Under the pieces are notes generated by a model, which saw only the letters and a list, made by a program, of their open reading frames with translations, searched no databases and had not been told where the DNA came from. A stretch of 64,000 bases of DNA, from positions 80,296 through 144,295 of the forward strand of contig CAZTBI010000002.1 in assembly GCA_964612055.1 (NCBI GenBank). Direction: 5' to 3'. Numbering within the stretch: the first letter of the stretch is position 1; each line of letters starts with the position of its first letter. The stretch is from an uncultured Bdellovibrionales bacterium (GTDB taxonomy: Bacteria; Patescibacteriota; Minisyncoccia; Moranbacterales; UBA1568). Made by a program: the position numbers and the translations under genes. This document shows positions 7,752 to 56,880 of this stretch, one piece after another.

Positions 7752-7812
7752 AGGAATAAATGCTTGAATAAGGGAAAAAGTGACGTTTACTACAGTTTCA
7801 GTATAGCACTAG

Positions 7813-7841
7813 TTGACAAAGATTCAAAGACATGCTATTAT
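7813..7841 (+). promoter_or_regulatory. sigma70-type promoter for the candidate sRNA (TTGACA-N17-TATTAT)
   Basis: -35 TTGACA at 7813-7818, 17-nt spacer, -10 TATTAT at 7836-7841. Confidence 0.55.
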
Positions 7842-7846
7842 CAGGG

Positions 7847-8080: not shown

Positions 8081-8097
8081 TTTGGAGATTCCTATTA

Positions 8098-36782: not shown

Positions 36783-36806
36783 TCTTTATTCGTAGATTTT
36801 CTTCTT

Positions 36807-37184: not shown

Positions 37185-37190
37185 GATTTT

Positions 37191-38888: not shown

Positions 38889-38908
38889 TTTTTTCGACAT
38901 TCTATAAT

Positions 38909-39952: not shown

Positions 39953-39975
39953 GAGAATATTGTCCTTGAGATATT

Positions 39976-40434
39976 ATGAAGCTTTCTGGCTTTACACTGA
40001 TTGAAGTGATCCTTATGATCGCTCTCATGATTTTCATCGGTATCATCGCTTCCCCTTTCTATGGGAACTTTTTGTTTGGACAGGAAGCGGATAGGGCCGC
40101 TACCGAACTTCGGGAAAGTCTCACGAAAGCCCGTTTTTACAGCATGATGGGAAAGGGGAATGATCAGTGGGGCGTAGCGTTTGATACCAATCGCATTATT
40201 CTCTTCAAGGGTAGTTCCTTCGGTGGTCGTGACCCAGTGTTTGACGAATCATATCCACTTCATGATCTGGTGACTTTGACAGGACTCAGTGAAGTTGTTT
40301 TTGATCGAGGGACGGGTGCGTCAAGTAGTCAGCCAACAATCACCATTACTCTGTATGGGAATAGTGACACGCCGACGACGCACACGCACACACTGACAGT
40401 GAATGCCGCTGGCGTTGTTGATGAGACTCTCTAG
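39976..40434 (+). CDS. Prepilin-type (pseudopilin) protein
   Basis: N-terminal class III signal G^FTLIEVIL. Confidence 0.8.
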   Translation: MKLSGFTLIEVILMIALMIFIGIIASPFYGNFLFGQEADRAATELRESLTKARFYSMMGKGNDQWGVAFDTNRIILFKGSSFGGRDPVFDESYPLHDLVTLTGLSEVVFDRGTGASSSQPTITITLYGNSDTPTTHTHTLTVNAAGVVDETL

Positions 40435-40440
40435 CAATAT

Positions 40441-40908
40441 ATGAAAACTTTTTTTCGTGGATTTTCTACACTCGAGATCCTCCTTGCTGGAGCGGTGTTT
40501 TCGGTATTTTCATGGGGAGTGATTGAGGTGACCCTGACCGCTCTTCAGGCAGATCGTTTGGGGCGAGAAACAACAGTAGCAACAGGGTATGCTGTAGAAG
40601 GTCTTGAGGCAGTGCGAGCGATCAAGGAGGAAAATTTCGATGATCTGGTACCAACAGATGCTACCGGCATAGCAAAGCAAGACGGATTCTTTGTTTTTGA
40701 CGGAACGGAGAATGTTTTTGACGGAATATATACTCGGACCATTGTGATCGAAGCTGGGAAGCGAGACGAGGGTGGCAATATCACGGAGGGTGACGGGAGT
40801 GATGATGTCGACACGGTCCGCGTCAGGGTGACGGTATCTTGGCAGCTCAGTCCAACGCGCAACGATTCAGTGGTACTCGAAACGTATTTCACTCGTTGGC
40901 ATATCTAG
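40441..40908 (+). CDS. Prepilin-type minor pilin
   Basis: N-terminal G^FSTLEILLAG. Confidence 0.75.
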   Translation: MKTFFRGFSTLEILLAGAVFSVFSWGVIEVTLTALQADRLGRETTVATGYAVEGLEAVRAIKEENFDDLVPTDATGIAKQDGFFVFDGTENVFDGIYTRTIVIEAGKRDEGGNITEGDGSDDVDTVRVRVTVSWQLSPTRNDSVVLETYFTRWHI

Positions 40909-40911
40909 GGT

Positions 40912-41439
40912 ATGAAAAGTATGAAAAAAAGACTTCGCGGGTTTACCTTTATTGAAGTGATACTGTATATCGGTCTGTTCTCGCTTCTTGGAACGGCACT
41001 CCTTACTTTTGCTTGGGATATCCTCAAACTTTCTCATGAGGGGAACACGGAACGTCTCGTGACAGAAGGGGGGCGCTTTGCGGTAGAGCGTATGAAGTAC
41101 AGTATGAGACAAGCAGCCGGTGTTGATACCGAGGCCTCTGTTTTTGATAGCGCCGATGGAAGGCTGGTCATTAATCAGTTCGGGAGCAGTGATACACTCA
41201 CCTTCGAACTTCAGAATGGGAAAGTAGTGATGCAGGAATCAGGGCAAGATGCTATCGTGCTTCAGCCTCAGAATACTCAGACGACAGCGCTCCTTTTTGA
41301 ACGATCCTCCCCCTCTGATCAATCAGTGGAGTATATTACAGTGACACTCACTCTCGAAACTTTACTTCAGGCGCCGCTCGAGTACGCTTCTAGTACGACT
41401 TTTGAAACAGGGGTGGTCATAAGAAATCTTGGTCTATGA
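40912..41439 (+). CDS. Prepilin-type minor pilin
   Basis: N-terminal RG^FTFIEVILYIGL. Confidence 0.75.
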   Translation: MKSMKKRLRGFTFIEVILYIGLFSLLGTALLTFAWDILKLSHEGNTERLVTEGGRFAVERMKYSMRQAAGVDTEASVFDSADGRLVINQFGSSDTLTFELQNGKVVMQESGQDAIVLQPQNTQTTALLFERSSPSDQSVEYITVTLTLETLLQAPLEYASSTTFETGVVIRNLGL

Positions 41440-41828
41440 AACAGGTACATCTTCGTGGCTATATAGCGATCATGACAGTGCTGGCACTGTTGGTGTTTTC
41501 GCTTTCTCTCTTGATAAGCGTCCCATACCTTTCCATTGGAGGTATTCAGGAGGCAGCTGTTTTTTCGGAGAGCGAGACAGTTTACGCCGCTCTCGAAGGA
41601 TGCGCAGAAGACGCCCTGCTTTTGAGTGTGAGAGACGAAAACTATACAGGCGGTACCTATACGTATCTCGGAGCAACGTGTGAAGTAAGTATTGAAAAAA
41701 ACGATCCATTGTGGACACTCTCTCTTACGGGGAGTAGGTACAGTGTGACACGGGTATTGCGGGTTATCGTAGAGCGTACGCCTGGTACCCCTGGAACACT
41801 GACACTTCAAAGTTGGCTGGAAGAGTGA
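41436..41828 (+). CDS. Minor pilin-like protein (GspK/PilX-like, lacks Glu5)
   Basis: N-terminal RGYIAIMTVLALLV hydrophobic segment. 4-bp overlap with the upstream pilin gene. Confidence 0.5.
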   Translation: MKQVHLRGYIAIMTVLALLVFSLSLLISVPYLSIGGIQEAAVFSESETVYAALEGCAEDALLLSVRDENYTGGTYTYLGATCEVSIEKNDPLWTLSLTGSRYSVTRVLRVIVERTPGTPGTLTLQSWLEE

Positions 41829-41869
41829 AAAACCGGTACAATAGAGGAGCCTATTGAAGATTTTTACGT

Positions 41870-42634
41870 ATGTTTTCAAAAAAACACCCAGCGCTTTTTA
41901 TCAGTAGTGGCTTTATAGAACCAGGAAACGTTACTGTTTCCAAAGAACTTCTTTTTGAGGGGAGCGAGGCGTTGCCATATGACAGAGAAACGTTTCGTCA
42001 GACACTCAGTCAGGCCCTTACTTCTCCTTACAAAAAAGCGCGCCTTGTTCTTTCTGAGGAACTCGTTTATGTAACGACCCTTCTGTTTCCGGTTGGTACG
42101 AAGCTCACTCGAGAACTCGTGAGAAGTCGGGCGGAGGAGACGATCCCGGAGGATCTTCGTGCCACGGCATGGGATTTTCGCACCATGCATTACAAAGAAA
42201 CGATCGGAGAAGCAGGGAGTGTCTTGGTACAGGTAGCGGTAGTAGAAGGGGGATTTTCTGATATTTTAAGCAAAACGTTGGCGGAGCAGGATTTTTCTGT
42301 TGAAGCGATTTTACCGGAATCCTCGGTTCTTGCCTCCCTCGTCGCTGACAAGGAGGGGGTGACAGTGATTGTGGAACAAGATCGTGAACGAATACTCTTT
42401 ATTGCCTGTGAGTCGCATCTCGTTCTTTCTACTCAGACGAAACAAGGAGTATTGGAGTACCCTTCCCTCAAGGCATTCCTCCTCTTTGTTTCCAGTGTCC
42501 TTGAGAAGAAAATAGAGAGTATCATTCTTTCGCATGTTACTGATGCAGAATTGAAAGACAGACTTGAAAAGGATGGGTATATGTACGAAGAGCAGTCGCT
42601 CAATCCTTTCCTTTGCTCGGGGCATTTTTTCTGA
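41870..42634 (+). CDS. Hypothetical pilus-locus protein (possibly PilM-like assembly factor)
   Basis: 254 aa, no TM helix. Position between minor pilins and major pilin. Function inferred from context only. Confidence 0.3.
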   Translation: MFSKKHPALFISSGFIEPGNVTVSKELLFEGSEALPYDRETFRQTLSQALTSPYKKARLVLSEELVYVTTLLFPVGTKLTRELVRSRAEETIPEDLRATAWDFRTMHYKETIGEAGSVLVQVAVVEGGFSDILSKTLAEQDFSVEAILPESSVLASLVADKEGVTVIVEQDRERILFIACESHLVLSTQTKQGVLEYPSLKAFLLFVSSVLEKKIESIILSHVTDAELKDRLEKDGYMYEEQSLNPFLCSGHFF

Positions 42635-42737
42635 AAGTTTCCGGGAAAGATGAGCGAGTGCTCAATTTGAATACTTTTTCCAAGGCTCCAGAGAGATCAT
42701 GGTGGCAGAGAGTCTTCCAAAAAGAGCGCCATAAGGC

Positions 42738-42766
42738 TTAGACAATTCTTGGGAAACTGGTATCAT
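42738..42766 (+). promoter_or_regulatory. Putative promoter of the major pilin gene (TTAGAC-N17-TATCAT)
   Basis: Hexamers at 42738-42743 and 42761-42766. Confidence 0.35.
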
Positions 42767-42794
42767 ACAAATAGGCTTTTCTTTCCGGTTTTTT

Positions 42795-43277
42795 ATGCAG
42801 CACAAAAATATTTTCTCATCCCGCAAGAAGGGTTTCACATTGATTGAAATCCTTTTAGTGATTGGCATCATTGCTGTTTTGGCGACAGTGGTGATTGTTT
42901 CGCTTGATCCGGCCACTCGTTTTCAAAATGCCCGCGACGCCAGGCGTTTAGCCGATATCCAGAGCATTCTTTCTGCGACACAGCAGTATATCGTGGATAA
43001 CAGAGGCTCTCTCCCGAGCGGACTCGACACTACAGAGAAACAGATTGGTACTGGTACCTCGGGCTGTACTCTGACGGATGGTATCTGTAGTGCCAATACT
43101 ACGTACTGTCTTGATTTAGAGACGACGCTAGCGCCTTATTTGAAGGACATGCCCTATGATCCCGAGAACGGTAGTGCCGCTCAAACTCACTACACGGTCG
43201 TTGTTGATAGCAACAATATCGTAACAGTGCGCGCTTGCGATTCTGCCGATACGACTATTGATGAGGTCTCGCGATAG
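42795..43277 (+). CDS. pilA: Type IV major pilin (PilA-like)
   Basis: KG^FTLIEILLVIGIIAVLATVV class III signal with Glu5; C-terminal Cys pair. Confidence 0.85.
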   Translation: MQHKNIFSSRKKGFTLIEILLVIGIIAVLATVVIVSLDPATRFQNARDARRLADIQSILSATQQYIVDNRGSLPSGLDTTEKQIGTGTSGCTLTDGICSANTTYCLDLETTLAPYLKDMPYDPENGSAAQTHYTVVVDSNNIVTVRACDSADTTIDEVSR

Positions 43278-43297: not shown

Positions 43298-44371
43298 ATG
43301 AAGCAGTTACTGCGCCACCTTTCTTTTTTCGGCCGTTACTTCTTTCCGAGGGCTGGTTTATTGCTTTTTTTTGTTTTGCCAGCCAGTACAAATTACCAAC
43401 TCAAGGATTTTGGCTACGGTGGCGGCGGTACGTCGAGTAGTGCTTCGAGTAATTATGCTATCGAGGGCATTGTTGGAGAGCAGGATAGTACAAAACTGAG
43501 TGGCACGACCTACGATCTTGGTCCAGGATTAGAATTTACCAATCAGGCCAATGTGCCTCCAGCTCCGACTTTCACCAATCCGAGTAGCTACTATAATAAA
43601 CTAAAAATAGTTTTGAGTACGGGCAGTAATCCGAGTGATACCAAGTTCGCCATTGCTATCAGTACTGATAGCTTTGTGAGTGATACTCGTTATGTCCAAG
43701 ATGACGATACCGTCGGAAGTGCTCTTGGTGCTGAGGACTATCAAACCTATACCAACTGGGGCGGGGCAAGTGGAGAACTTATTATCGGCCTCCTCTCAAA
43801 TACCACTTACACGGTAAAGGTCAAAGCTATGCAGGGGAGTTTCACGGAGACGGGCTATGGGCCAACGGCATCGGCGGCTACAATTAGTCCAACGCTGACA
43901 TTTGATATTGATGTAGCCGCTACCGATGTCGATAATAGCGTGACGACACTTGATTTGGGGAGTCTCCTTGCTGGTACCGTAGTAGATAGTGCTGAGAAGA
44001 TCTGGGTGGATTTTATAACCAATGGTGAGGGGGGTGGCCGGGTGTATGTGTATGGCAGTAACGCTGGTCTTGCCAGTACTCGCGCGGCCTACACTATTAG
44101 TGCTGTGACGGGGAATCTGACTGCTTTGACGGAAGGATTCGGTGCTCAGGGTTCGACAGCGACTAATGGTCTTTCGGAAGCGACACTTTATGATCAAACA
44201 GGGAATACGGTTGGTACGGTGGATACGGCGATTCGGGAAATATTTACTGCCACGGCTCCCACAACCAGCGGTCGAGGATCATTTCTCCTCAAAGCAAAGT
44301 CTGGAGCGGTGACACCGGCTGCGAATGATTATACTGAAACGTTGACGGTTATTGCTTCTGCGAGTTTCTAG
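43298..44371 (+). CDS. Secreted Thr/Ser/Gly-rich surface protein, WxL-like C-terminus (paralog 1)
   Basis: Signal peptide. Ends ...ANDYTETLTVIASASF, matching the distal WxL motif pattern Y-T-x-T-L-T-W with W replaced by V. Confidence 0.6.
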   Translation: MKQLLRHLSFFGRYFFPRAGLLLFFVLPASTNYQLKDFGYGGGGTSSSASSNYAIEGIVGEQDSTKLSGTTYDLGPGLEFTNQANVPPAPTFTNPSSYYNKLKIVLSTGSNPSDTKFAIAISTDSFVSDTRYVQDDDTVGSALGAEDYQTYTNWGGASGELIIGLLSNTTYTVKVKAMQGSFTETGYGPTASAATISPTLTFDIDVAATDVDNSVTTLDLGSLLAGTVVDSAEKIWVDFITNGEGGGRVYVYGSNAGLASTRAAYTISAVTGNLTALTEGFGAQGSTATNGLSEATLYDQTGNTVGTVDTAIREIFTATAPTTSGRGSFLLKAKSGAVTPAANDYTETLTVIASASF

Positions 44372-44393
44372 TAAAAATTGAATAATCTTTTTG

Positions 44394-44422
44394 ACAGAGG
44401 GCTTTTTTTGTGCTATTATGGA
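44394..44422 (+). promoter_or_regulatory. Consensus promoter (TTGACA-N17-TATTAT) for 44496 gene
   Basis: -35 at 44394-44399 and -10 at 44417-44422. Confidence 0.5.
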
Positions 44423-44495
44423 TAAGTAGGGAAAGAGAGTTTCTGGTTTTTTCTTAGAAAATTTTAGAAAAATAAAAATAAAATAAGCTATCGCT

Positions 44496-45539
44496 ATGGT
44501 ACGAACTGAAATTCAAAGAACAGTCATGCTGGGAATCTTCTCTCTCTTGGTTGTCCTCGCGCTTCCGATATTTTTCATCAACAAGGCCCAGGCAGCAGGC
44601 TTGACTCAGGCCATGGTGCGTCCTGATCGCCTGGCTGCTTCTACCACGACTGGTGGTATGGTATGTGCTAAATCTACGACCACCGCTGTTGAGACAACAG
44701 TCAAAGTGACGTTTCCCACAGGCTTTACCGTAAACAGCACTGCCTCCAACTGGACAGTCACGACGACAGATATCCCTGCCGATGCTACTGCCTGGATTGG
44801 TATCGGGACCGCCTCCCTGGTCTCTGGTCAGGATGTCACGTTTCCGAGTGGTAACATGGTTGTAGGGACACTGTATTGCTTCAACTTTGCTGCCTCAAGT
44901 ACTCTTACGACGAGTACTGCCGGGAATGACAAGACAGGAGTTATTACAACGCAGCTGGCTGGTCCGACGACTATCGATAGTTCGAGTTACGCGCTCTCTA
45001 TTGTTTCGAATGATCAGATTGTTGTGTCGGCTACTGTCCCAGCCACCTTTACTTTCAGCTTGAGTGCCAACACGGACTCCATCGGTACGTTGTCAACAAC
45101 CACCGCCTCTTCTTCTGGTGTGACTGCTACTATCGCGACCAATGCCGCTGCTGGTTGGGTGGCGTGGGCAAAGAGCGCGAACGCTGCTTTGAACTCGGCT
45201 TCAACTGGAGCGACTATTGCGACAGCAGGTACTCTCAATAATGCTCCAACAGATCTCGCCTCCTCTACTGGCTATGTCCTGGATGTGAACGTTACGACAG
45301 ACAGTGGTACCGGTACCGGTACAGTCTCTCAGGCTTCAGATTATGGCGCAGAATACAATGGCACCAACTCGACTTCAGGAGGAACGCTTTCAACTACCTT
45401 TCAGCCGATTGCCGCTTCGAGTGGTACAACCGATGGTGATGTGCTGACTCTCATTGAGCGAGCAAAGATCAGCGCTGTCCAGGCTGCCGCTACCGATTAT
45501 ACCGATACTCTGACAGTTGTTGCTGCCGGTCGTTTCTAA
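44496..45539 (+). CDS. Secreted Thr/Ser/Ala-rich surface protein, WxL-like C-terminus (paralog 2)
   Basis: Signal peptide (cleavage after AQA). Ends ...ATDYTDTLTVVAAGRF; proximal ATFTFSL motif. Confidence 0.6.
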   Translation: MVRTEIQRTVMLGIFSLLVVLALPIFFINKAQAAGLTQAMVRPDRLAASTTTGGMVCAKSTTTAVETTVKVTFPTGFTVNSTASNWTVTTTDIPADATAWIGIGTASLVSGQDVTFPSGNMVVGTLYCFNFAASSTLTTSTAGNDKTGVITTQLAGPTTIDSSSYALSIVSNDQIVVSATVPATFTFSLSANTDSIGTLSTTTASSSGVTATIATNAAAGWVAWAKSANAALNSASTGATIATAGTLNNAPTDLASSTGYVLDVNVTTDSGTGTGTVSQASDYGAEYNGTNSTSGGTLSTTFQPIAASSGTTDGDVLTLIERAKISAVQAAATDYTDTLTVVAAGRF

Positions 45540-45647
45540 AAGGGATTTAAACCGAAAAGATAGGCCTCCTTCCTTATGAAGGAGGTTTTTGTTTTCCCTC
45601 CCAGTAGCCATTTTTTAGAGGAATGCGCTATAATAGAAACATCTTTT

Positions 45648-46730
45648 ATGAAAATCTCCCATTCTTCCTTATTGAATAAGACGGCTTTGCTCGGCCTGTT
45701 TTTTGTCTTCTCTTTCCTCTTGCCACTTCAAGCACGAGCTCAGACGAACCAAGATTCGATCGAAGCGGGTCTCCGCCTTGTGACCTCTCCATTGCCTATC
45801 AGCTTGGTGACCGAGCCAGGGACCTCGATCTCAACTGATCTCAAGATAAAGAATGGTGGTGCAGCAGAAGAGCGTCTCCAGGTGACACTCATGAAATTTC
45901 GGGCCTATGAAGAGTCTGGAAAACCACAGCTTTTAGAGCGAGAAGCTGGAGACGACTTTCTTGATTGGGTTCATTTTTCAGAATCAACCTTTACGCTCGC
46001 TCCGAACGAATGGAAAACAATTACCGCTACCTTTGAGGTGCCACCTACCGCCTCCTTTGGTTACTACTATGCTTTTGTGTTCTCTCGATCCGGGGAAGGG
46101 ACAATGCTCCAGGAAAGAGAAACGGCCATTGTTGGCGGTACGGCCGTTCTCGTGCTCCTCGAGGCTCGTGTTCCCAATGCTCTGAGACAGGTAGAAGTTG
46201 CTGAGTTTTCTCTCGACAAAAAGTTCTACGAGTTTCTTCCAGCGACCTTCTCCGTACTGTTGAAAAACTCTGGTAATGTCCATGTGGCACCTCGGGGCAA
46301 CATCTTCATTGATCAGGGAACAACACATGACGTTGCTATTCTCGAGATTAACCACGAGAAGGGGAGTATTCTTCCTCAATCAAACCGTGCCTTTGAGACA
46401 ACTTGGGAAGATGGTTTTCCGCTCTATGTCGACAAGCTTGAAGATGGAAAAACGGTGCGTGATGAAGAAGGAAATATCATGCAAACTCTCAAGTGGGACT
46501 GGAACAATGCCTCCAAGCTTCGTTTTGGTAAGTACACCGCCAAGATGCTCTTGATCTACGATGACGGACAGCGTGATATCCCGATCGAAGGAGAAGTGTC
46601 TTTCTGGGTGGTGCCTTGGAGGATTATTGGACTGGCTCTCTTCAATATACTGCTCATCGTAGGGTTGATCCTCTACGTGATTCGTCTGCGTCGTAAGTTA
46701 AAGCGTTTGAACTATGAAGAAAAGAAATAA
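45648..46730 (+). CDS. Membrane-anchored cell-surface protein, DUF916/DUF3324-like architecture (copy 1)
   Basis: Start chosen at MKISHSS. Signal peptide ...LPLQARA, a beta-rich ectodomain of about 300 aa, C-terminal TM helix plus basic tail (RLRRKLKR). Confidence 0.65.
   Translation: MKISHSSLLNKTALLGLFFVFSFLLPLQARAQTNQDSIEAGLRLVTSPLPISLVTEPGTSISTDLKIKNGGAAEERLQVTLMKFRAYEESGKPQLLEREAGDDFLDWVHFSESTFTLAPNEWKTITATFEVPPTASFGYYYAFVFSRSGEGTMLQERETAIVGGTAVLVLLEARVPNALRQVEVAEFSLDKKFYEFLPATFSVLLKNSGNVHVAPRGNIFIDQGTTHDVAILEINHEKGSILPQSNRAFETTWEDGFPLYVDKLEDGKTVRDEEGNIMQTLKWDWNNASKLRFGKYTAKMLLIYDDGQRDIPIEGEVSFWVVPWRIIGLALFNILLIVGLILYVIRLRRKLKRLNYEEKK
45704..46628 (+). repeat. Tandem direct repeat copy 1 (925 bp, 100% identical to copy 2)
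   Basis: Identical to 46776-47700 at a 1072-bp period. The ORF track shows identical sub-ORF translations in all frames. Confidence 0.9.
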
Positions 46731-47799
46731 AAATTTCCTTAGAGAGAAAACGATAGGTGCAATTTTTGTGCTTACTGTCTTCTCTTTCCTCTTGCCACTT
46801 CAAGCACGAGCTCAGACGAACCAAGATTCGATCGAAGCGGGTCTCCGCCTTGTGACCTCTCCATTGCCTATCAGCTTGGTGACCGAGCCAGGGACCTCGA
46901 TCTCAACTGATCTCAAGATAAAGAATGGTGGTGCAGCAGAAGAGCGTCTCCAGGTGACACTCATGAAATTTCGGGCCTATGAAGAGTCTGGAAAACCACA
47001 GCTTTTAGAGCGAGAAGCTGGAGACGACTTTCTTGATTGGGTTCATTTTTCAGAATCAACCTTTACGCTCGCTCCGAACGAATGGAAAACAATTACCGCT
47101 ACCTTTGAGGTGCCACCTACCGCCTCCTTTGGTTACTACTATGCTTTTGTGTTCTCTCGATCCGGGGAAGGGACAATGCTCCAGGAAAGAGAAACGGCCA
47201 TTGTTGGCGGTACGGCCGTTCTCGTGCTCCTCGAGGCTCGTGTTCCCAATGCTCTGAGACAGGTAGAAGTTGCTGAGTTTTCTCTCGACAAAAAGTTCTA
47301 CGAGTTTCTTCCAGCGACCTTCTCCGTACTGTTGAAAAACTCTGGTAATGTCCATGTGGCACCTCGGGGCAACATCTTCATTGATCAGGGAACAACACAT
47401 GACGTTGCTATTCTCGAGATTAACCACGAGAAGGGGAGTATTCTTCCTCAATCAAACCGTGCCTTTGAGACAACTTGGGAAGATGGTTTTCCGCTCTATG
47501 TCGACAAGCTTGAAGATGGAAAAACGGTGCGTGATGAAGAAGGAAATATCATGCAAACTCTCAAGTGGGACTGGAACAATGCCTCCAAGCTTCGTTTTGG
47601 TAAGTACACCGCCAAGATGCTCTTGATCTACGATGACGGACAGCGTGATATCCCGATCGAAGGAGAAGTGTCTTTCTGGGTGGTGCCTTGGAGGATTATT
47701 CTCGGAACACTCGCACTCGCACTCTTTGCTTTCTTAGGGGTTCGTTCGACACTTCAGAATATCTGGAAGAAAATAGCGAAAAAAGATACGGTATCATGA
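46714..47799 (+). CDS. Membrane-anchored cell-surface protein, DUF916/DUF3324-like (copy 2, different N- and C-termini)
   Basis: Identical central 308 aa. Distinct signal peptide and a distinct C-terminal TM/tail (GTLALALFAFLGVRS...). Confidence 0.65.
   Translation: MKKRNKNFLREKTIGAIFVLTVFSFLLPLQARAQTNQDSIEAGLRLVTSPLPISLVTEPGTSISTDLKIKNGGAAEERLQVTLMKFRAYEESGKPQLLEREAGDDFLDWVHFSESTFTLAPNEWKTITATFEVPPTASFGYYYAFVFSRSGEGTMLQERETAIVGGTAVLVLLEARVPNALRQVEVAEFSLDKKFYEFLPATFSVLLKNSGNVHVAPRGNIFIDQGTTHDVAILEINHEKGSILPQSNRAFETTWEDGFPLYVDKLEDGKTVRDEEGNIMQTLKWDWNNASKLRFGKYTAKMLLIYDDGQRDIPIEGEVSFWVVPWRIILGTLALALFAFLGVRSTLQNIWKKIAKKDTVS
46776..47700 (+). repeat. Tandem direct repeat copy 2
   Basis: See copy 1. 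Confidence 0.9.
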
Positions 47800-48731
47800 A
47801 GTTTTTTTCATTTTTCATTTTTTCATTTTTTGCCCTTACCCTTGTTTCTGTTCCCGGGAAGAGCATTGCTCAGAGTGAGCAAAGAGGTCTTTCGGTGAGC
47901 CCGGTTTTTCAAGAAGTTGTTTTTGGAGCAGAAGATGTCCAGGCTGAATTTTCGGTGACTTTGAAAAACGAGACAAAGGAAGCGGTAACCATGTATCCCT
48001 CGGTCGTTGATTTCGGCTCTTTGGATGAGAGCGGGGGAGTGGCTTTTCTTGGACAATCTGAAAATTTGGAACGCAAGTATTCTTTGGCTTCATGGATGCG
48101 ACCAGAAAAAGACGTGCTGTCTCTCGATCCTGGCGAAACGGAAGAATTGCAGGTAGTGATAGAAAACAGAGAAACGCTCTCACCGGGCGGACACTATGGA
48201 GCGGTACTGTTTAAAATAGGCGATGAAGCTGGTGTTTCAGAAAAAGAGAACCAAGTCGCTGTTCAGCAACTGGTGTCGGTGCTTGTTTTTGCCAAGAAGC
48301 AGGGTGGAGAGGTGTATCACCTTGAACTCGGGGAAAGTACCTGGTCTAAAAATCTCTTTGCCACGCCTTCTCGAGTAGAGCTGCGCTTCCAAAACCCTGG
48401 GAACATTCATGTTGTGCCACGAGGCACAGTGACACTGACGGATCCTTCGGGGAGAAAAGTAGCTAAAGGTGTTATCAATCAAGAATCAGGGTTTTTACTT
48501 CCGGAAACACTCCGTACCTACCCGGTGAAACTCCAAAACCTTTCCCGAGAGTTCATTCCAGGAAAATATACCCTCACCATAGCCTATCGTTACGACGGAA
48601 AAGAGGATGTCGTAGTGAGAGAAATGAGTCGCGTCATTTTCCCTTGGCAGGGATTGGCAGGGATTGCCTGTATATTAGCAATTTTGTATGGGAGACGTCT
48701 CTTGAGAAGAAAGTCTTCCTTTGGAAAGTGA
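47778..48731 (+). CDS. Membrane-anchored cell-surface protein, divergent third DUF916-like paralog
   Basis: Start chosen at MKFFSFFIF. Signal peptide, same domain order (NxxVxxxPRG, KYTxxxxxxYDDG), C-terminal TM plus RRLLRRK tail. Confidence 0.6.
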   Translation, partial: EKRYGIMKFFSFFIFSFFALTLVSVPGKSIAQSEQRGLSVSPVFQEVVFGAEDVQAEFSVTLKNETKEAVTMYPSVVDFGSLDESGGVAFLGQSENLERKYSLASWMRPEKDVLSLDPGETEELQVVIENRETLSPGGHYGAVLFKIGDEAGVSEKENQVAVQQLVSVLVFAKKQGGEVYHLELGESTWSKNLFATPSRVELRFQNPGNIHVVPRGTVTLTDPSGRKVAKGVINQESGFLLPETLRTYPVKLQNLSREFIPGKYTLTIAYRYDGKEDVVVREMSRVIFPWQGLAGIACILAILYGRRLLRRKSSFGK

Positions 48732-48777
48732 ATCACTTTCCAAAGCATCTTTTAGTGAGGGAAAACAAAGAAAAAGC

Positions 48778-49389
48778 ATGTCAAAAAGAGAGAATACTTG
48801 GTTTACAATGATACACGCACAGAAGAAAAGCCTTTGGGGAGGGTTTTTCGTAACGCTCCTCGTAGTCGGACTGTATTTTCTCTGGCACTTCATGAATGAA
48901 AAGGCTACTGGAGTAGTTTATCAGATAGAAAAGGACATATTTTCTTCTGACAAGGAGCAAGAGATAAGGCTCTATAAAGGGAAATATGTTCATTTTTCTT
49001 CTGCCGGGACATACGAAGAAAAGACTCATGAGATACCTGAGAAAGGTCCAATCAAAGAGAGCATTCTCCTTGCAACATCAGGATCAGACTGGAAAAGAAT
49101 AGCGGTAACAGTTGCTTCTCGAGGCACCGATGATCTTTCAAGTGACCCGTCATTTCAGATGCGTGCTCATGCTCCAGGGGAATATGAAAAAAGCTCATTT
49201 TCTCAGTCGCAAGCACCTTTTTCCGGCGTTTTTTTTGAAAAAAACACGCAACCATTCGAAAGAACAGCTTTTTTTGCTTTGGATGAGTATATAGTGAGTA
49301 TTTCAGCGACATCCCTCTTGAGATCTGATGGGTTGGAAACGGAACTCTCCGAAATTATTTCAAGTCTGCAATTTGAATCAGGGCAGTAA
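48778..49389 (+). CDS. Hypothetical membrane-anchored protein
   Basis: 204 aa from MSKREN; single N-terminal TM helix. Confidence 0.4.
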   Translation: MSKRENTWFTMIHAQKKSLWGGFFVTLLVVGLYFLWHFMNEKATGVVYQIEKDIFSSDKEQEIRLYKGKYVHFSSAGTYEEKTHEIPEKGPIKESILLATSGSDWKRIAVTVASRGTDDLSSDPSFQMRAHAPGEYEKSSFSQSQAPFSGVFFEKNTQPFERTAFFALDEYIVSISATSLLRSDGLETELSEIISSLQFESGQ

Positions 49390-49458: not shown

Positions 49459-52400
49459 TTGAGTCGGGGTGAGCCGACGCAGATGTTTTTTTGTATGCCA
49501 TTCTCACCGAGAAATCTCAAAACAAAAAAAATATACAACGGCTACAAGAATTTTTTCTTGCTGCCCCTCTTTTTTACAGGTATTGCTCTTGTAGCGTTTT
49601 TTTCGTCTCCTGATGTTTTCGCCGCTACTGGTATCAACGAGGAAATTAGTTTCCAAGGGAAGGTAGTCAATGATGATGGTACCAATGTTGCCAATGGTAA
49701 CTACGATTTTGTTTTCAAGCTCTACACCGTCTCTTCAGCTGGGACAGCAGTCTGGACCGAAACTCGAACGGGTGGCAATCAGGTGACGGTGACTGACGGT
49801 ATTTTTCAGGTCAATCTTGGTTCGGTGACGACTTTGCCAGGATCAGTTGATTTCAATACCGATAACATCTATCTCGGTATCGAGTTTAATAGCGATGGTG
49901 AAATGTCACCCCGGGTTCATTTTACGGCTGCCCCCTATGCCATGAATGCGGCCAAGGTAGGAGGGCTGACGGTGACTGATACTACGGGTACGCTGACGAT
50001 TCCGAATGGCAAGACGATTTCTTTTGCTGATGATTTTACAACGTCTGGAGCTTTTGCAACGACACTGACTGCGACGGCGACAACTAACGTCACGCTCCCA
50101 ACGACAGGGACACTAGCGACATTGGCAGGGAGCGAAATATTCACGAACAAAACTATTGGTTCTACCGGGCTGGTCTTTTCTGGCGCGACGACGGATATTA
50201 CCACTGCCTCAAACGAAGATCTGACTCTTACGGCAGCTGGTTCAGGAGATATCGTGTTGGTACTTGATTCAGGTACTTTTGTGAATCTGACTGGTGGCGC
50301 TGATGGAACAGCGGCGTTGACACTGGCGGCTGGTGATCTGACGCTCACTGACGGTGATCTCATTGTGACGGCTGGGGATGTGAATTTCACTTTGGATGTT
50401 GCCGATACATTTAATATCGTTAAGTCTGGGGCCAACGCTGGTGATGTCGCCAACATCACTGCCTCGTCGGTCAATGCTCTTGATGGCTTGCAGATTGATC
50501 TCACAGCGACGACTGATTCTGGAGCAGACAATGTCACGGGTCTTGATCTTGCCTGGACAGAATCTGCGGATGCTGATGTCTGGACCGCTCTCAATCTGCC
50601 GAATACCACAACAACGAATTCCTCCACGAGGGCTTTTGTTATAGGGACGGGATATGACACTATTCTTGATACCGCTGCCCTCGATATTTCTGGAGCAGGA
50701 GTGATTTCTGGGGCGACGGGAATTTCGACGACTACTCTTACGGCATCATCCACTATCGCTGCCAATGGCGGTATTACCTTCGATGCTTCCACAGATACGT
50801 TGGGTGCTTTTACAATGGCTGGCACACTCGATGCCAATGCTAATATCCTGACCAATATTGGAAACTCGGGTACGGATTTCGTAGCCTCGACGGGCGCACT
50901 GACCTTGGCTGGAGTCTTGACGGCCAATGGTGGTATTAGTTTGTCGGCCAGTCAGTCTCTCACAGCAGTAGCTCTTTCATACATTGACCTTGGATCTATC
51001 ACTCATGGTACGACTGCGGTGCAGGGTCTGCGTCTCCCTCAAGCGGCTTCGGCTAGTCCGTCGAGCCCGAGTTCGGGCGAGGGCTATCTCGCTTGGGATG
51101 CGAGCGGCAATCAACTCATTTACTATACGGGAAGTGCTTGGTCCACGATTTCAGGTGGCAGTGGCTACAATCTGATCAAGGATGAAGCAAGCAGCCTAAC
51201 CGCTCGAACGACGTTAGCTTTTCTTGGATCAGGAGTGTCCTGTGCCGACAATGCTTCACAGACAGAGTGTACTATTTCTGGCGGTGGTTCGAGTGATTTA
51301 CAAACCACGTATGGCAATGATGCTGATGGATCTGATGCGACGATTTCTCTTACGACGGCTGATGATTCACTTATTTTTACAAACCCAACCTCCTCTGGTA
51401 CCGACAGCGCCTTCCTCCTCCAAATTTCTCAGCAGCACACGACTGCTGGCGTCGTAGCGCTCGATATCACACAGTCATCCAGTGGAGCAAATGGTCTCAA
51501 TCTTACTGCGAATGCTATCGATACCGAGACGGCTCTAGCAGTGACAGCGAATACGCTCACTTCTGGCTTCGGTCTCAGTATCGCTTCCTCATCAGCGGCT
51601 CTTACGGGAGCATTGCAATCGATCACACTTTCCGGTTCCAATGCCAGTAACACGGGTTCGCTCCTCGCCCTTGATAACACGGGCACCTCCAATGCCAATA
51701 CTTCGCTCTACATCAAGCACTATGCGACTGGTACCAACAATCTGGCCTTCCGCATCGATGACGTCTCTGGTGATACCACGCCGTTTGTGGTTGATGGTAC
51801 CGGGGCAGTAGGTATCGGAACGACAGCACCAACGAGTTTGTTCGAACTCTATGGTACTGGAGCGGCTGACATTGTCGGTACCCTGACCGCCCCTGACGCG
51901 ACGTACGATCCCATTTTCAAATTCCGCACCGGTTCGACTCCGGCCGTTATGTTCTCGATGGGTGTTGATAACTCTGATTCAAGTAAATTCAAGATCTATT
52001 CTGGTGATGGCCTAGGAAGTGGTGATGAATTCGTCATTGATGCCGGTGGCGTGACGACTATTGCCAACCTCAATCTTGGAGCTACCAGTTTTGACGAAGA
52101 CGCCGGTATTGTTTCTTGGATGGATATGTCGGTGACTGCATCATCAGCAGTAGACAGTATCCAGAGTTATTCGGCGCTCATTGATGGCAATAGTCTTCTC
52201 ACGGTTTACGCTGAATCTGATGGCGCTGACGGTATTCAGGATAAGCGTATTCAGATTGGTGAGGGCGGAGCTGGCTCGACGGGCCCAACGCTTTTGGCTC
52301 TCGATGTGAAATCAGATACGAGCGATCCAGCGGGTTTCGAGGGTGCCATGTACTACAACACGTTCGATAATGTTTTCCGCTGTTACCAGAATAGTGGCTG

Positions 52401-55400
52401 GACGAACTGTATTGGGTCGGGTGGTTCATCGGATCTTCAGGCAACGTACGGTAATGATGCCGACGGTTCCAACGTCACTATTTCCCTGACCTCGGCGGAT
52501 GACGGCATCGTTTTCAGTAACCCAGCTTCTTCTGGTACTGACAGCGCCTTTACCTTCAAAGTAGAACAGCTGAATACCGGTATCGATAACGACGCTTTGT
52601 ATATCGACAATCGTGGAACAGGGGATGGGCTGCGGATTGATGATGAATCTGGCGATACCACGCCGTTTATTGTCGACAAAGATGGTCGGGTGGGTATCGG
52701 GACGAGTTCCATTAGCGCTGCCGCTGCGACGGAACGTCTCCTTCAGGTTGGGTCAGAAACAAACCGAGGAAATAGTGTGACATACGGTGAAGTGGTAACA
52801 AAAGGTCAGCGCGACATCACGGCGCTTACCAATATTAAGGATATCTATGTGTACGACACCACGGCTGATAGTGATGGTGGTCGCTGGATTGACTGGGCGA
52901 CGACCGATAAATTGTCGTGGTATACGGAGACGCTTGATGATGGCCCGAATGACCCGTGCAATATTGCCTCTGATGATCGCTGTTACAAGGCCTCGTTCCC
53001 GCGCAAGGCTATTTTGGTCGTAACGACCGATGCTCTCTATATTTTCGATGCCCAGGACAACACCTTGTGGATGAAGTTTAGTCAGAACGCCTCTGGATAT
53101 GCGCTTGGTATTGATACTAACAATGATCCTTCGTCAGTGAGCGCTTTGAACGGGGTGATCTATGTGGGAACCAATGGAGTCTCAGCTGGAGGGCTTTATG
53201 CATTTGATTTTACGACAGATCGGATGTGGAAATATGACTCTACCGATCGTAGTCAAGGTGATGTTGGTATAGGAAGTCGCAACAGCGCTGTAACATATAA
53301 TTCTGATAATAATACCCAGTTTGATCTTGGTAATGATACCGGTTGGGATGCTGTGAATGATGTATCAGTTGCTACGATGCAGTTTAGTACCACGGCCATT
53401 GCTATCGGTACTACCACGAACATTGGTCCGGGCAATGGTTCAACGCTCGTGGCTGTGGCTACTGATTCAGGACTGGGAGTTATTAATCTTTCTAGACAAC
53501 GTTATGTCGCTTATTCGGATGCTACGGATGATAACTACAATGCCGTCGTAATTACACGGACCGCTAAACTGTATGGCTTGAATAATACCCTAGACCAAGC
53601 AGAAAAGTGGATTAATATTGATCAGGATCAGGTGAGCGAAGAAAATGGAACGCCTGATAAGGTGTGGGATCAAGCTTCTACGCCTGCGCTTTCTAAAACT
53701 CAGCCTGCAATCAGTAGTGGGGCACCAGATGCGCTCGAGGTAGTGGAGCGTGGCTCGCTTGCGGACGGTGGTTTGCTTTCGACAGCTGCCGCTGCTGGTT
53801 CTTCAGACCTTATCTATGTTGGTACTGACCAGGGTTTGACAGAAATCCATGATCATTCGACCCCAGCTTCTGGTTGGTCAAAATTTTTCAATACTACTAA
53901 GCAGTCAGCGCTCATGCCGGGAACTATCAAGCGTGCCCATATGATGGATGATGCTTCTGGAGATTTGACAGATGATAGTTTCCGAGTAAATACCATGGCG
54001 CCCATTGGGGGCGTAACCTATGGAATCAATGGTGCGCGAGGAAAAGCAGTGACGCTCAATGGTACGAGCGGATTCTTCTGTTCAGATAATGGTGGAGCAA
54101 CTTGTGCTGTAGATACTGATGACAATATGAGCACAACCGCTTGGAATATGCAGATGTGGTTTAAGCATTCTGTAACTCAGGCAGGGACTGATGTTTTGTA
54201 TAGCCGCTGCTACAATACAACCCCGGCTGCTGCCGCTGCCTGTGTAACAGTCTATATGACGAGCACTGGTACTATGGTTGCTGCTTATGATGATGATGCT
54301 ACTTGGACAGCTTACTCCTCGTACGATGCTATGCTCACCTCGACACGGACGTATAATGACAATCAATGGCATCATATGGTTATGGCTCGTGATAACGCCA
54401 ATGACCTCCATTTCTTTATTGATGGCACGCCGATTGTTTCAAATAATGCGACTGGATCGACGCTGACACTTGATGCTAGTCAAATCGTATCGATCGGAGC
54501 GGATTGTAGCGTAGGAGTGGCCTGTGCGACAGGGGCCAATTTCTGGGATGGTTCCATAGATGACTTTACCTTTAGTCAGGGTACGACAACAGTAGATGCG
54601 TTGACGGGAGCGCAGGCACGCCGTCTCTATAATGATGCTCGGCCTCTTTTGAACAAAAAAGTAATCACGGTTACTGATGCTACTACCGCTACCTCTACCA
54701 CGATAGGTGATTCAGGAGAAACATGGATTCCGAATGAATTTTCGAGTCAGATTGTAGAAATTACGAGCGATACCGGAGCGGGTCAGACACGTCGCATCGT
54801 TGCTAATACGACAACAACATTAACTGTTTCCCCAGCCTTTTCGACAGTACCAGACACGACTTCAGATTTCGAAATCAATCCGGAAATTTTGTACGGCGCT
54901 TCGAATACTGTGACAGCCATCGGTGTCACGGGAGAGTCAGCCATGGGCGAAGCGCGTCAGTTGTGTGTAGGTACGAATAGCACGACTGACACGGGTGGTG
55001 TCACGTGTCTTAACCATCAAGCTGGGCCGAACCTGGTAGCTGACATGTATCACGGAGACTCGGAACAGACCGATGATAGTGGTGCGGAATGGACGGGCAC
55101 GGACTATGATGATATCCAATCTATTGATATCTCCGGTCGTGCGATGGTAATTGGCTCCATGGCGCACCTCTGGACAGAAACGGAAGATGTTCGTCTAGGA
55201 CAAGGAATGGATTATCTTTCCAATAAGATATTTGATTTGACTAACGTGGTAAAGAACCTTGGTATGCAGACCCTTGCTGGAAGTGGTAGCATGGAAATTG
55301 GTTTAACCGGTGGCGCTGACTTGGCTGAGCATTATTATTCGAACGAAGTTCTTACTGCGGGAGAGGTGGTAGCGATCGACAAGAGTCTTGTCGCGGGGAT

Positions 55401-56880
55401 CAAAAAAACGACCGGTGCCTATCAAAAAGATGTGCTTGGTATTGTCGCTACCGAACCAGGGATTATTCTTGGTGGAGCAGCTGAGAACTCCTATCCCGTT
55501 ACCCTGGTCGGACGTGTCCCAGTCAAAGTGACCAATGAGAACGGTCCAATCTATGCCGGTGATCGGCTGACATCAAGCGTGCGTCCGGGCTCTGCCATGC
55601 TTGCTACACAGGCTGGTCGAGTGCTTGGTGCGGCTCTGGCTGATGCTGTCGACTGGACAGTCTGTGAAGGGGAAAACCCACAGGATACCAATGCCTTGCT
55701 CTGTACGACTGTTATGGTGTTCATCAATCTGACGGATTATTCTGGTCAGTCGGTGGAACTGGCTATGGCAGAGCGTAATGCTGAATCCGATGGGCTTTCT
55801 GATATGGCAGCGCTCGATAGTATCGAACAAGGGCTCGGATCCGATAGCGCGAGCATCCGTCTCTCAAGAAACATGCCGACCAAGCAGGAAAAAATCCTCG
55901 ATTTCTTGAAGGATCTCGACGCCAAGCAAGTGGCCTCTGGTCAATCACTCTCAGAAGTCTTTACGGGACGAGTGGCCGCTTCTCGTGAGGTGATCACCCC
56001 GACTCTCTATGCCGATCAGATTTTTGCCAAGAGTATCAAGGCTGACTCTATCGAAGGGCTGGAGATCTTCACGAATCAGATCAGTAGTTTGGAAGAAAAA
56101 TATGCTGGTCTCGATGCGAAAGAAAGTGATTCATCAGAAACAACCGATACTGTGAAAGAACAGTTGGCTCTTGCCATGAAGAAACTTTCGGCTGATACAC
56201 TCATACTCAGGCTCGATGGCAGTATCTTGGGTAAACTTTCTGTGAATGGCGCGCTCAAGGTTGGTGAGACAGCAGAGTTTGGTGGAGAGACAGTCTTTGT
56301 GAAGCTTGCCAGTTTCTTGGACAAGACGATTTTCAAGGGAATGGTTTCATTTGAAAGTACACCAACCTTTGCCAGTGATACGGCTGGTTTCGCGGTGATT
56401 GCCAAGGATGCCCGGAGAGTACGCGTGGTATTTGATACACCGTACGAGAAGCAGCCGATCGTAACGGTCTCACTTACCCGCGAAGAGTCGCCACTGCTTT
56501 CTGAAGCCGATGAAGATTTGAAAAAGGATATTGCACTTTTGGAAGAAGAGTATGTAGGAGCTGTCTTCAAAGAAAATGTCCGTTATGTGGTGACGGAAAA
56601 ATCAGCCAACGGATTTACCGTCGTTCTTTCCGAAAAAGCAGCTCGTGACCTCCAGTTCTCTTGGGTAGCGCTCTCAGTGGATAAGGCTAAATCATTTAGT
56701 TCAGAACCGGAAGGGGAGGAAGAGGTGCTGCCACCGGCTGATCCGACAGAAGAGATTCTTCCGGCTGAAGAGGAAGTCGAGGGGACAGAGGAGATCCCGC
56801 CTCTTGAAGAGGAAAAGACCGAAACTTTGCCTTTGCCTGATGTTCCAGAAGCGCCGGCAAAGATCGAAGACTTACCATAG
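49459..56880 (+). CDS. Giant (2473 aa) secreted/surface protein with Thr/Gly/Ser-rich beta-repeat regions, LamG-like (Laminin_G_3) domain and acidic Glu/Pro-rich C-terminal tail
   Basis: N-terminal signal/TM (LLPLFFTGIALVAFF). Repeated module ...GGSSDLQ(T/A)TYGNDADGS... appears twice. LamG_3-like segment (WNMQMWFKH...NQWHHMVMARD...LHFFIDG...FWDGSIDDFTFS). Tail EEEVLPPADPTEEILPAEEEVEG. Confidence 0.75.
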   Translation: MSRGEPTQMFFCMPFSPRNLKTKKIYNGYKNFFLLPLFFTGIALVAFFSSPDVFAATGINEEISFQGKVVNDDGTNVANGNYDFVFKLYTVSSAGTAVWTETRTGGNQVTVTDGIFQVNLGSVTTLPGSVDFNTDNIYLGIEFNSDGEMSPRVHFTAAPYAMNAAKVGGLTVTDTTGTLTIPNGKTISFADDFTTSGAFATTLTATATTNVTLPTTGTLATLAGSEIFTNKTIGSTGLVFSGATTDITTASNEDLTLTAAGSGDIVLVLDSGTFVNLTGGADGTAALTLAAGDLTLTDGDLIVTAGDVNFTLDVADTFNIVKSGANAGDVANITASSVNALDGLQIDLTATTDSGADNVTGLDLAWTESADADVWTALNLPNTTTTNSSTRAFVIGTGYDTILDTAALDISGAGVISGATGISTTTLTASSTIAANGGITFDASTDTLGAFTMAGTLDANANILTNIGNSGTDFVASTGALTLAGVLTANGGISLSASQSLTAVALSYIDLGSITHGTTAVQGLRLPQAASASPSSPSSGEGYLAWDASGNQLIYYTGSAWSTISGGSGYNLIKDEASSLTARTTLAFLGSGVSCADNASQTECTISGGGSSDLQTTYGNDADGSDATISLTTADDSLIFTNPTSSGTDSAFLLQISQQHTTAGVVALDITQSSSGANGLNLTANAIDTETALAVTANTLTSGFGLSIASSSAALTGALQSITLSGSNASNTGSLLALDNTGTSNANTSLYIKHYATGTNNLAFRIDDVSGDTTPFVVDGTGAVGIGTTAPTSLFELYGTGAADIVGTLTAPDATYDPIFKFRTGSTPAVMFSMGVDNSDSSKFKIYSGDGLGSGDEFVIDAGGVTTIANLNLGATSFDEDAGIVSWMDMSVTASSAVDSIQSYSALIDGNSLLTVYAESDGADGIQDKRIQIGEGGAGSTGPTLLALDVKSDTSDPAGFEGAMYYNTFDNVFRCYQNSGWTNCIGSGGSSDLQATYGNDADGSNVTISLTSADDGIVFSNPASSGTDSAFTFKVEQLNTGIDNDALYIDNRGTGDGLRIDDESGDTTPFIVDKDGRVGIGTSSISAAAATERLLQVGSETNRGNSVTYGEVVTKGQRDITALTNIKDIYVYDTTADSDGGRWIDWATTDKLSWYTETLDDGPNDPCNIASDDRCYKASFPRKAILVVTTDALYIFDAQDNTLWMKFSQNASGYALGIDTNNDPSSVSALNGVIYVGTNGVSAGGLYAFDFTTDRMWKYDSTDRSQGDVGIGSRNSAVTYNSDNNTQFDLGNDTGWDAVNDVSVATMQFSTTAIAIGTTTNIGPGNGSTLVAVATDSGLGVINLSRQRYVAYSDATDDNYNAVVITRTAKLYGLNNTLDQAEKWINIDQDQVSEENGTPDKVWDQASTPALSKTQPAISSGAPDALEVVERGSLADGGLLSTAAAAGSSDLIYVGTDQGLTEIHDHSTPASGWSKFFNTTKQSALMPGTIKRAHMMDDASGDLTDDSFRVNTMAPIGGVTYGINGARGKAVTLNGTSGFFCSDNGGATCAVDTDDNMSTTAWNMQMWFKHSVTQAGTDVLYSRCYNTTPAAAAACVTVYMTSTGTMVAAYDDDATWTAYSSYDAMLTSTRTYNDNQWHHMVMARDNANDLHFFIDGTPIVSNNATGSTLTLDASQIVSIGADCSVGVACATGANFWDGSIDDFTFSQGTTTVDALTGAQARRLYNDARPLLNKKVITVTDATTATSTTIGDSGETWIPNEFSSQIVEITSDTGAGQTRRIVANTTTTLTVSPAFSTVPDTTSDFEINPEILYGASNTVTAIGVTGESAMGEARQLCVGTNSTTDTGGVTCLNHQAGPNLVADMYHGDSEQTDDSGAEWTGTDYDDIQSIDISGRAMVIGSMAHLWTETEDVRLGQGMDYLSNKIFDLTNVVKNLGMQTLAGSGSMEIGLTGGADLAEHYYSNEVLTAGEVVAIDKSLVAGIKKTTGAYQKDVLGIVATEPGIILGGAAENSYPVTLVGRVPVKVTNENGPIYAGDRLTSSVRPGSAMLATQAGRVLGAALADAVDWTVCEGENPQDTNALLCTTVMVFINLTDYSGQSVELAMAERNAESDGLSDMAALDSIEQGLGSDSASIRLSRNMPTKQEKILDFLKDLDAKQVASGQSLSEVFTGRVAASREVITPTLYADQIFAKSIKADSIEGLEIFTNQISSLEEKYAGLDAKESDSSETTDTVKEQLALAMKKLSADTLILRLDGSILGKLSVNGALKVGETAEFGGETVFVKLASFLDKTIFKGMVSFESTPTFASDTAGFAVIAKDARRVRVVFDTPYEKQPIVTVSLTREESPLLSEADEDLKKDIALLEEEYVGAVFKENVRYVVTEKSANGFTVVLSEKAARDLQFSWVALSVDKAKSFSSEPEGEEEVLPPADPTEEILPAEEEVEGTEEIPPLEEEKTETLPLPDVPEAPAKIEDLP

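Follow-up and report, generated by a model that had tools for sequence, protein, structure and literature searches.

A Patescibacteria gene module with WxLIP-like anchors and a shared C-terminal domain lacking recognisable WxL similarity: a candidate surface-display system

The window considered here is a 64,000-nucleotide (nt) stretch of contig CAZTBI010000002.1 (assembly GCA_964612055.1, positions 80,296 to 144,295 of the forward strand) from the genome of an uncultured, ultra-small Candidatus Moranbacteria bacterium (Patescibacteria), and all coordinates count from its first letter. It contains two adjacent genes for putatively secreted proteins, A and B, which share a C-terminal domain, followed by three genes for candidate membrane anchors, C, D and E, which resemble the WxLIP proteins of Bacilli. 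Lengths are given in amino acids (aa), and the confidence of AlphaFold2 (AF2) models as the predicted local distance difference test (pLDDT). The features of this part of the window are as follows.

43298..44371, + strand: protein A, an open reading frame (ORF) of 357 aa with a signal-like N-terminus, a Gly-rich stretch, an FN3-like domain and the shared C-terminal domain
43391..43546, + strand: A residues 32-83, a conserved Gly-rich segment predicted to be disordered in the monomer
43547..43882, + strand: A residues 84-195, an FN3-like domain
43883..44368, + strand: A residues 196-357, the shared C-terminal beta-sandwich, ending DYTETLTVIASASF; pLDDT >90
44391..44419, + strand: candidate promoter upstream of B, sigma-70-type and near-consensus (TTGACA-17-TATTAT with TG, 11/12 match)
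44496..45539, + strand: protein B, an ORF of 347 aa (31 kDa) with a signal peptide (..AQA followed by AG), an N-terminal beta-sandwich and the shared C-terminal domain
44595..45026, + strand: B residues 34-177 (B_N, the 'head' domain), a beta-sandwich with invariant C57 and C128
45027..45536, + strand: B residues 178-347, the shared C-terminal domain, with TNAAAGWVAW at 215-224 and DYTDTLTVVAAGRF at the end; pLDDT mostly 88-96
45562..45588, + strand: terminator-like hairpin (11-bp stem and T-run) directly 3' of B
45648..46730, + strand: protein C, a WxLIP-like anchor of 360 aa with a signal peptide, two immunoglobulin (Ig)-like domains and a C-terminal membrane helix
46714..47799, + strand: protein D, a tandem duplicate of C (361 aa, 93% aa identity)
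47796..48731, + strand: protein E, a second type of WxLIP-like anchor (311 aa, 25% identical to C)

The ORFs of A and B lie on the + strand where an initial annotation of this DNA had placed them, and their translations end as it had reported, NDYTETLTVIASASF in A and TDYTDTLTVVAAGRF in B. Each opens with a hydrophobic, signal-like segment, as judged by eye. The description of both as rich in T, S and G was borne out, with Ala abundant as well: mature A contains 14.7% T, 10.4% S and 11.7% G (isoelectric point, pI, 4.15) and mature B 20.4% T, 11.8% S and 15.0% A (pI 4.08); both are acidic, T/S/A-rich and almost free of Cys. The AF2 models had a mean pLDDT of 76.6 for A and 82 for B. Homologues numbered 1028 for A and 1385 for B (629 representatives at 50% clustering), all annotated as hypothetical and without a Pfam domain, and the closest database proteins of A and B came from metagenome-assembled genomes (MAGs) of Moranbacteria/Moraniibacteriota. 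Relatives of B gave 161 species-level genome matches in Patescibacteria. Scans with Pfam and NCBIfam at relaxed thresholds returned nothing informative for A or B, and a profile search of PDB sequences gave noise only (haemoglobin, a monobody).

Residue conservation was scored in 40 close homologues each for A and B and, for the B C-terminal domain, in 114 representatives at 50% clustering. The conserved C-terminal Y-T-x-T-L-T-V motif of the initial annotation proved to be under strong constraint: D, Y, E, L and T of the terminal motif were invariant in 40/40 homologues of A, and D-Y-T-D-T-L-T in 40/40 homologues of B. Since it is invariant or nearly so across homologues, the motif is no chance feature. 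Among the 114 representatives G220 and Y335 were invariant, and T215, N216, A217, W224, D334, D337, T340, A344, G345 and F347 were at least 90% conserved. The Gly-rich segment of A also contained invariant residues (G41, G43, G44, S50, Y53, G60, E61, G77 and L78), and residues 16-82 had a pLDDT below 50 in the monomer model. Residues 32-83 include a trio of short, family-wide conserved units with the pattern NY-x-[LI]-x-x-[FIL]-G (NYQLKDFGYGGGG, NYAIEGIVGEQ and TYDLGPGLEF); this segment could bind a partner or donate a strand.

Homology between A and B was concentrated at their C-terminal ends. By BLASTP just the last 52 aa aligned (E 6e-6), and profile comparison of the C-terminal domains with hhalign gave a probability of 99.2% over 152 columns (E 9e-20). 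A hidden Markov model (HMM) of the B domain matched A at E 1.3e-17, and a custom profile-profile alignment of A with B reached z=8.2 over a block-shuffled null. The two proteins had been called paralogous; judged from their sequences, this stands for the last ~165 residues only, and the N-terminal halves are unrelated.

Within the window the shared domain was found by HMM search in A and B alone. It was always located at the extreme C-terminus, including in larger proteins: a complete B module closes four proteins of 784-1641 aa (P0243, P0244, P0247 and P0249), whose passengers are five TIG domains; TIG with an NHL propeller; a subtilase S8; and Big_5. The B head domain opens about 19 further proteins of ~900 aa (P0336 and about 18 others), which lack the shared domain, carry FN3/CarboxypepD_reg domains and end in a membrane helix and basic tail. 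As these proteins end in a membrane helix rather than in the C-terminal domain, the two are alternative holders of the head. This suggests that the shared domain acts in retention at the C-terminus and is interchangeable with a membrane anchor.

The initial annotation had interpreted A and B as WxL domains in which the Trp is replaced. To obtain genuine sequences for comparison, a fragment of the Siezen supplementary alignment was used as WxL bait in tblastn, which led to a plasmid cluster of Melissococcus plutonius. As positive controls, its small WxL protein scored 166.5 bits on PF13731 (gathering score 25 bits) and its WxLIP 109 and 113 bits on PF06030 (gathering score 27.3 bits) and PF11797. 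The reference set comprised 15 small WxL proteins and 10 WxLIPs, from plasmids of Bacillus, Listeria, Enterococcus, Pediococcus and Vagococcus. In the relaxed HMM search that the annotation had proposed, PF13731 did not match A or B even at E<=10, and 0/40 members of the B family matched. Profiles of A and B, whether of full length or of the C-terminal domain, were aligned by hhalign to the 15 WxL proteins with probabilities of just 0.3-0.6%, over 25-36 columns at the last hairpin, and hhalign -glob yielded only trivial end overlaps. The shuffle-controlled custom alignment gave z of 0.8 and -0.1, versus 8.2 for the A-B control, and HMM searches between WxL and A/B in both directions did not exceed 6 bits (WxL HMM built here versus 390 family members). 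The annotation had stated that the lack of a profile-profile relationship would refute its claim, and none was detected. A collinear likeness seen by eye (L.ID / LDFG...I / D.RGT..GW / L.GA...L..G / last hairpin) was rejected after it failed both hhalign, run locally and globally, and the shuffle-controlled alignment.

Both Trp-x-Leu motifs of WxL domains (proximal ..D.RGT.aGW.L.. and distal ..Y..TlTW.L.daP) are absent from A and B. At the distal position A reads TLTVIA and B TLTVVA, with no Trp in either; at the proximal position A has GGGRVYV, also without Trp, and B has GWVAW (W-x-x-W) after the TNA turn. The sequences TFSL and TFDI, offered by the annotation as proximal motifs, coincide with the first strand of the domain common to A and B; as equivalents of a WxL motif they are unsupported. 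By sequence, A and B are not WxL proteins.

A and B might still be true, extremely diverged WxL proteins in which the fold is kept and different residues form the buried Trp/Leu platform. In A, B and the four large proteins the domain is strictly C-terminal, as in WxL-type proteins. A and B are followed by three WxLIP-like genes in the window, and the same arrangement recurs in about 70 of 79 loci; this corresponds to a WxL-type cluster, which has at least two such proteins and one WxLIP within a few genes, if 'WxLIP' is taken to mean a remote homologue. The small and large forms, the acidic pI and the position of two such genes beside WxLIP-like genes parallel WxL proteins (PMC9772566). The last hairpin can be aligned ('i.L.vP.g....a.Y..tlTW' with 'itL...A.is...aa.DYtDTlTV'), the TNAAAGW turn of B recalls RGTxAGW of WxL motif 1, and the spacing from motif to motif is 103-120 residues, compared with ~106 reported for small WxL proteins. 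Terminal strands of the form G-x-Y-[ST]-x-T-[LV]-T-[VF] are common in Ig-like pilins, so the aligned terminal strand is weak evidence. Against such an origin stand the lack of support from PF13731, hhalign, HMM and shuffle-controlled alignment alike, the missing Trp in motif 1 of A and in motif 2 of both proteins, the absence of the Pro-rich PVDPxDP linker, and the ~40 residues that precede motif 1 in place of ~80 in small WxL proteins. A diverged WxL identity is thus regarded as quite unlikely.

The claim that the downstream genes are DUF916-like was upheld, with hhalign probabilities of 96-97.6% over >200 columns between the C, D and E families and genuine WxLIPs. WxLIPs consist of a signal peptide, two Ig-like domains and a C-terminal membrane helix in about 337-365 aa (PMC10599100). 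Proteins C, D and E have hydrophobic N- and C-terminal segments, the latter a membrane helix followed by a basic tail. An alignment of three sequences matched WxLIPs at 97.1%, the 62-sequence C family at 97.5% (95.9% without the membrane helix) and an independent alignment of 57 E-type sequences at 97.6%. The DUF916 domain alone matched the anchor families at 90.6-92.8% (92.8% for the E family), and five other beta-sandwich profiles, used as a control, gave no more than 0.5%. On E, PF06030 reached E 0.004 and 17.6 bits, against the cut-off of 27.3, and C gave a weak match to fn3_5.

The listed ORF start of C (45576) falls inside the terminator-like hairpin, and the ATG at 45648 fits homologues and D better. 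A 300-nt stretch of C and D is 99% identical (45697-45996 compared with 46769-47068); this near-identity could reflect a recent duplication or an assembly risk.

Two further genes follow the anchors.

48721..49389, + strand: protein F, a small membrane protein found in 35/79 loci, fast-evolving with a median identity of 27%
49459..56880, + strand: protein G, a Thr/Gly-rich surface protein of 2473 aa, the last gene of the module

Protein F had no family match in Pfam and NCBIfam scans, and in 35 loci it is still encoded between the anchors and G despite fast divergence. Protein G showed a weak LamG match only and has an acidic, Glu/Pro-rich tail; HMM search found no copy of the shared C-terminal domain in it.

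Synteny was counted over the 79 loci kept from a scan of GTDB species representatives (161 B relatives). The module runs from A through B, which is duplicated in some cases, and one to five anchors to F and the giant protein. A adjoins B in 70/79 species loci, WxLIP-like genes are present in 71/79 (149 copies in total) and a G-like giant gene lies downstream in 51/79. The annotation had seen in this arrangement the csc/WxL cluster architecture. That comparison survives for the layout, in which two proteins sharing a C-terminal domain are followed by WxLIP-like anchors, but not for the docking domain, which is not a recognisable WxL domain.

Where the record title of a B relative names a candidate lineage, this is Moraniibacteriota, Andersenbacteria, Paceibacteria, Parcubacteria, Berkelbacteria or Saccharimonadia, the last represented by loci L074-L095, which carry the operon. 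Many operon-bearing MAGs (L018, L019, L024, L070-L073, L090, L093 and others) are titled 'uncultured Bdellovibrionales', 'Pseudomonadales' or 'Gammaproteobacteria'; on Patescibacteria operon records these titles are probably wrong taxonomic labels.

Upstream of A, positions 37191-43277 hold a complete set like that of type IV pili or type II secretion systems, with PilB, PilC, four pseudopilin-like ORFs, a PilM-like ORF without a family match and a pilin. A and B directly follow this set in the window, which raises the possibility that they are accessory proteins or substrates of the upstream machinery. However, PilB is adjacent in just 10/79 loci, and in locus L016 the module comes straight after a sensor kinase and response regulator, with pilus genes absent; the pilus cluster is therefore a neighbour and not part of the module. 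The pilin at 42795-43277, which carries the N-methylation motif, was the sole match to PF07963/TIGR02532, and a prepilin motif is absent from A and B. A link to the pilus genes was thus largely ruled out by synteny, and this explanation is hardly credible. Upstream of the module in the window, 33545-37190 encode a CHASE4-PAS sensor and a PAS-HisKA kinase; the corresponding genes of L016 lie at 4903-8761, and the response regulator recurs in related loci. That two-component genes precede the module even without pilus genes suggests that it is under two-component control.

B has its own candidate expression signals. A promoter match of at least 10/12 was found near the start of B in 45/79 related loci, and a hairpin with T-run followed B in 54/76 loci, versus 7/67 after A. 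Median identity to the window was 68% for B, 61% for A, 77% for PilB, 66% for PilC, 40% for E and 27% for F, and in the same genome pairs B was 68-78% identical compared with 62-83% for PilB. B is thus about as conserved as PilB. For a surface protein that is exposed this is uncommon, and it indicates tight constraints on structure. The candidate promoter and terminator of B, together with PilB-like conservation, suggest an abundant component, and on these signals B looks to be a separately and strongly expressed major component of the module.

The same properties would suit a conventional S-layer protein whose C-terminal domain binds peptidoglycan or a wall polymer directly, with the anchors functionally separate. 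B is acidic, T/S/A-rich, Cys-poor, highly conserved and encoded in what appears to be a separate, strong transcription unit, and cells from the Candidate Phyla Radiation (CPR) have been reported to possess S-layers in the electron cryomicroscopy literature. However, the anchors adjoin in 71/79 loci, frequently in several copies, and this speaks for a functional connection with B. Scans of A, B and 40 relatives found no SLH, CWB2 or other wall-binding family, and S-layer proteins are usually larger than the 31 kDa of B. An S-layer protein of this kind is considered very unlikely.

A fibre assembled by chaperone-assisted donor-strand exchange was also weighed, in which A and B would be subunits, C, D and E PapD-like chaperones or basal anchors, and the large proteins with a B module tip adhesins. 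Chaperone-usher operons show such a layout, with a major-subunit gene followed by two-Ig-domain proteins, and here too a candidate major-subunit gene with promoter and terminator precedes proteins of two Ig-like domains. Foldseek listed PapG and FimH, adhesins of two domains; the aromatic residue at the C-terminus is conserved; an N-terminal passenger with a C-terminal B module corresponds to the layout of a tip adhesin; and the conserved N-terminal stretch of A has no ordered structure in the monomer model, a trait often seen in donor strands. However, the B_N profile (B residues 34-177) takes in the N-terminal strand of B and also matches the N-terminus of the membrane-anchored ~900-aa proteins, so that this strand may be integral to the head domain. 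No usher, sortase, PapD-type protein or dedicated signal peptidase was present among the neighbours scanned, and no SCPU or fimbrial family matched A, B or 40 relatives. On balance such a fibre is unlikely.

The preferred reading, given a probability of roughly 0.5, is that the module encodes a Patescibacteria-wide surface-display system which works in the manner of WxL/WxLIP with a different docking domain, and of which B is the abundant component. A, B and their passenger-carrying paralogues would leave the cell by Sec export. The shared C-terminal domain, with its terminal strand DYT(D/E)TLTV...F-COOH, would then dock non-covalently on the DUF916-like ectodomains of C, D and E, probably by beta-strand augmentation. 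In this way the N-terminal domains would be displayed outside the cell: FN3 in A, the sandwich with its disulfide in B, and in the larger relatives a protease, TIG domains or an NHL propeller. B plausibly forms a coat or lattice, with A, the anchors, F and G in smaller amounts. A precedent for such docking is the binding of WxL by WxLIP, in which a hairpin of DUF916 is predicted to insert into WxL (PMC10599100).

Several observations weigh against this reading. PF06030 scored below its gathering threshold in every anchor, with weak matches in 18/62 members (best E 0.004). PF11797 was not listed for C, D and E at E<=10, nor was it one of the 25 families shown for the 62 members at E<=1, and the generic fn3_5 matched the first anchor domain weakly in 61/62 members. 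The second (DUF3324) domain alone matched at just 3.5-41%, which places the WxLIP likeness mainly in the DUF916 domain, and the NQIDKxxxYFDLK motif, present in the genuine WxLIPs fetched, was absent from C, D and E by inspection. The strong profile match, taken with sub-threshold Pfam scores, a weak second domain and an absent motif, indicates that C, D and E are probably remote homologues of WxLIPs and not members in the Pfam sense. Structural searches gave generic Ig-like matches only, with no WxL structure among the PDB matches listed, and are neutral on a link at the level of the fold. The proposed docking of A and B on C, D and E is based on neighbourhood and analogy, the signal peptides of A to E were read by eye from the sequence, and the promoter and terminator calls are consensus matches only, made with sigma-70 rules that are unvalidated for CPR.

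A wider version of the surface-display reading is doubtful. In it the operon would encode the main envelope coat of many Patescibacteria, and B would be the major subunit of an S-layer or fibre that has long been sought in CPR; along with A and the passenger-carrying paralogues, it would be tethered to DUF916 anchors. DUF916/WxLIP would then be an ancient display platform of monoderm bacteria that pairs with unrelated docking domains, WxL in Bacilli and a new one in CPR.

Patescibacteria account for a large share of bacterial diversity. Most of them are attached to other cells in life, and hardly anything is known of the proteins from which their surface is made. At least 161 species-level genomes, spread over several CPR classes, contain the module, with an apparently strongly expressed structural gene. 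If B is a major surface protein and C, D and E are its anchors, the system would offer a handle for antibodies, for assignment in electron cryotomography and for genetics in cultivable Saccharibacteria. The shared domain would become a new C-terminal sorting or retention signal by which further surface proteins could be recognised, among them the protease and the adhesin-type proteins with TIG/NHL, and the concept of a DUF916/WxLIP anchor would reach beyond Bacillota.

Among known systems, donor-strand-exchange pili and fibrils share single traits with the module. As in chaperone-usher and archaic (Csu/SCPU) pili, Ig-like subunits end in a strand of the type G/Y-T-x-T-x-T-V and a C-terminal aromatic residue, a terminator follows the major subunit gene, two-Ig-domain proteins are encoded alongside, and some proteins combine an adhesin with a C-terminal subunit domain. 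Unlike those pili, the module has no usher, no periplasm and no SCPU or fimbrial match, and its two-Ig proteins are membrane-anchored and related to DUF916 rather than to PapD. The TLP-1a/b freshwater fibrils (CryoSeek, PDB 9ikk) show 13% identity; relatives of TLP-1 are Flavobacteriales proteins, and donor-strand exchange has been shown for TLP-1, not for B. B resembles S-layer proteins in being acidic, rich in hydroxy amino acids and poor in Cys, with a gene that is separately and probably strongly transcribed, and differs from them in its 31 kDa, in having no known wall-binding module and in being paired with A and the anchors.

The closest likeness in gene content is to the WxL/WxLIP (csc) clusters of Bacilli (PF13731 with PF06030 and PF11797; Siezen 2006; Hassan & Williamson 2022/2023). 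A minimal WxL cluster consists of two secreted proteins with a common, strictly C-terminal domain and WxLIP-type anchors (PMC10599100). The module likewise encodes two secreted, acidic proteins with one strictly C-terminal domain, which occurs in small forms and in large ones with N-terminal adhesin or enzyme domains. Their neighbours of ~310-380 aa have a signal peptide, two Ig-like domains and a membrane helix and are related to WxLIPs through the DUF916 domain, and a very large surface protein belongs to the same cluster. The docking domain of A and B, however, has neither sequence or profile similarity to WxL nor its Trp-x-Leu motifs, and the module contains no Pro-rich linker, LPXTG protein or sortase. 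The anchors usually occur in two to five copies of two types, fall under the Pfam thresholds and lack NQIDKxxxYFDLK, and the hosts are Patescibacteria, not Bacillota. In the literature searched, no paper was found to connect WxL or DUF916 with either Patescibacteria or Saccharibacteria. What we rate as new is the combination: a proposed surface display of WxLIP type, a docking domain of a new kind and a lineage new to such systems.

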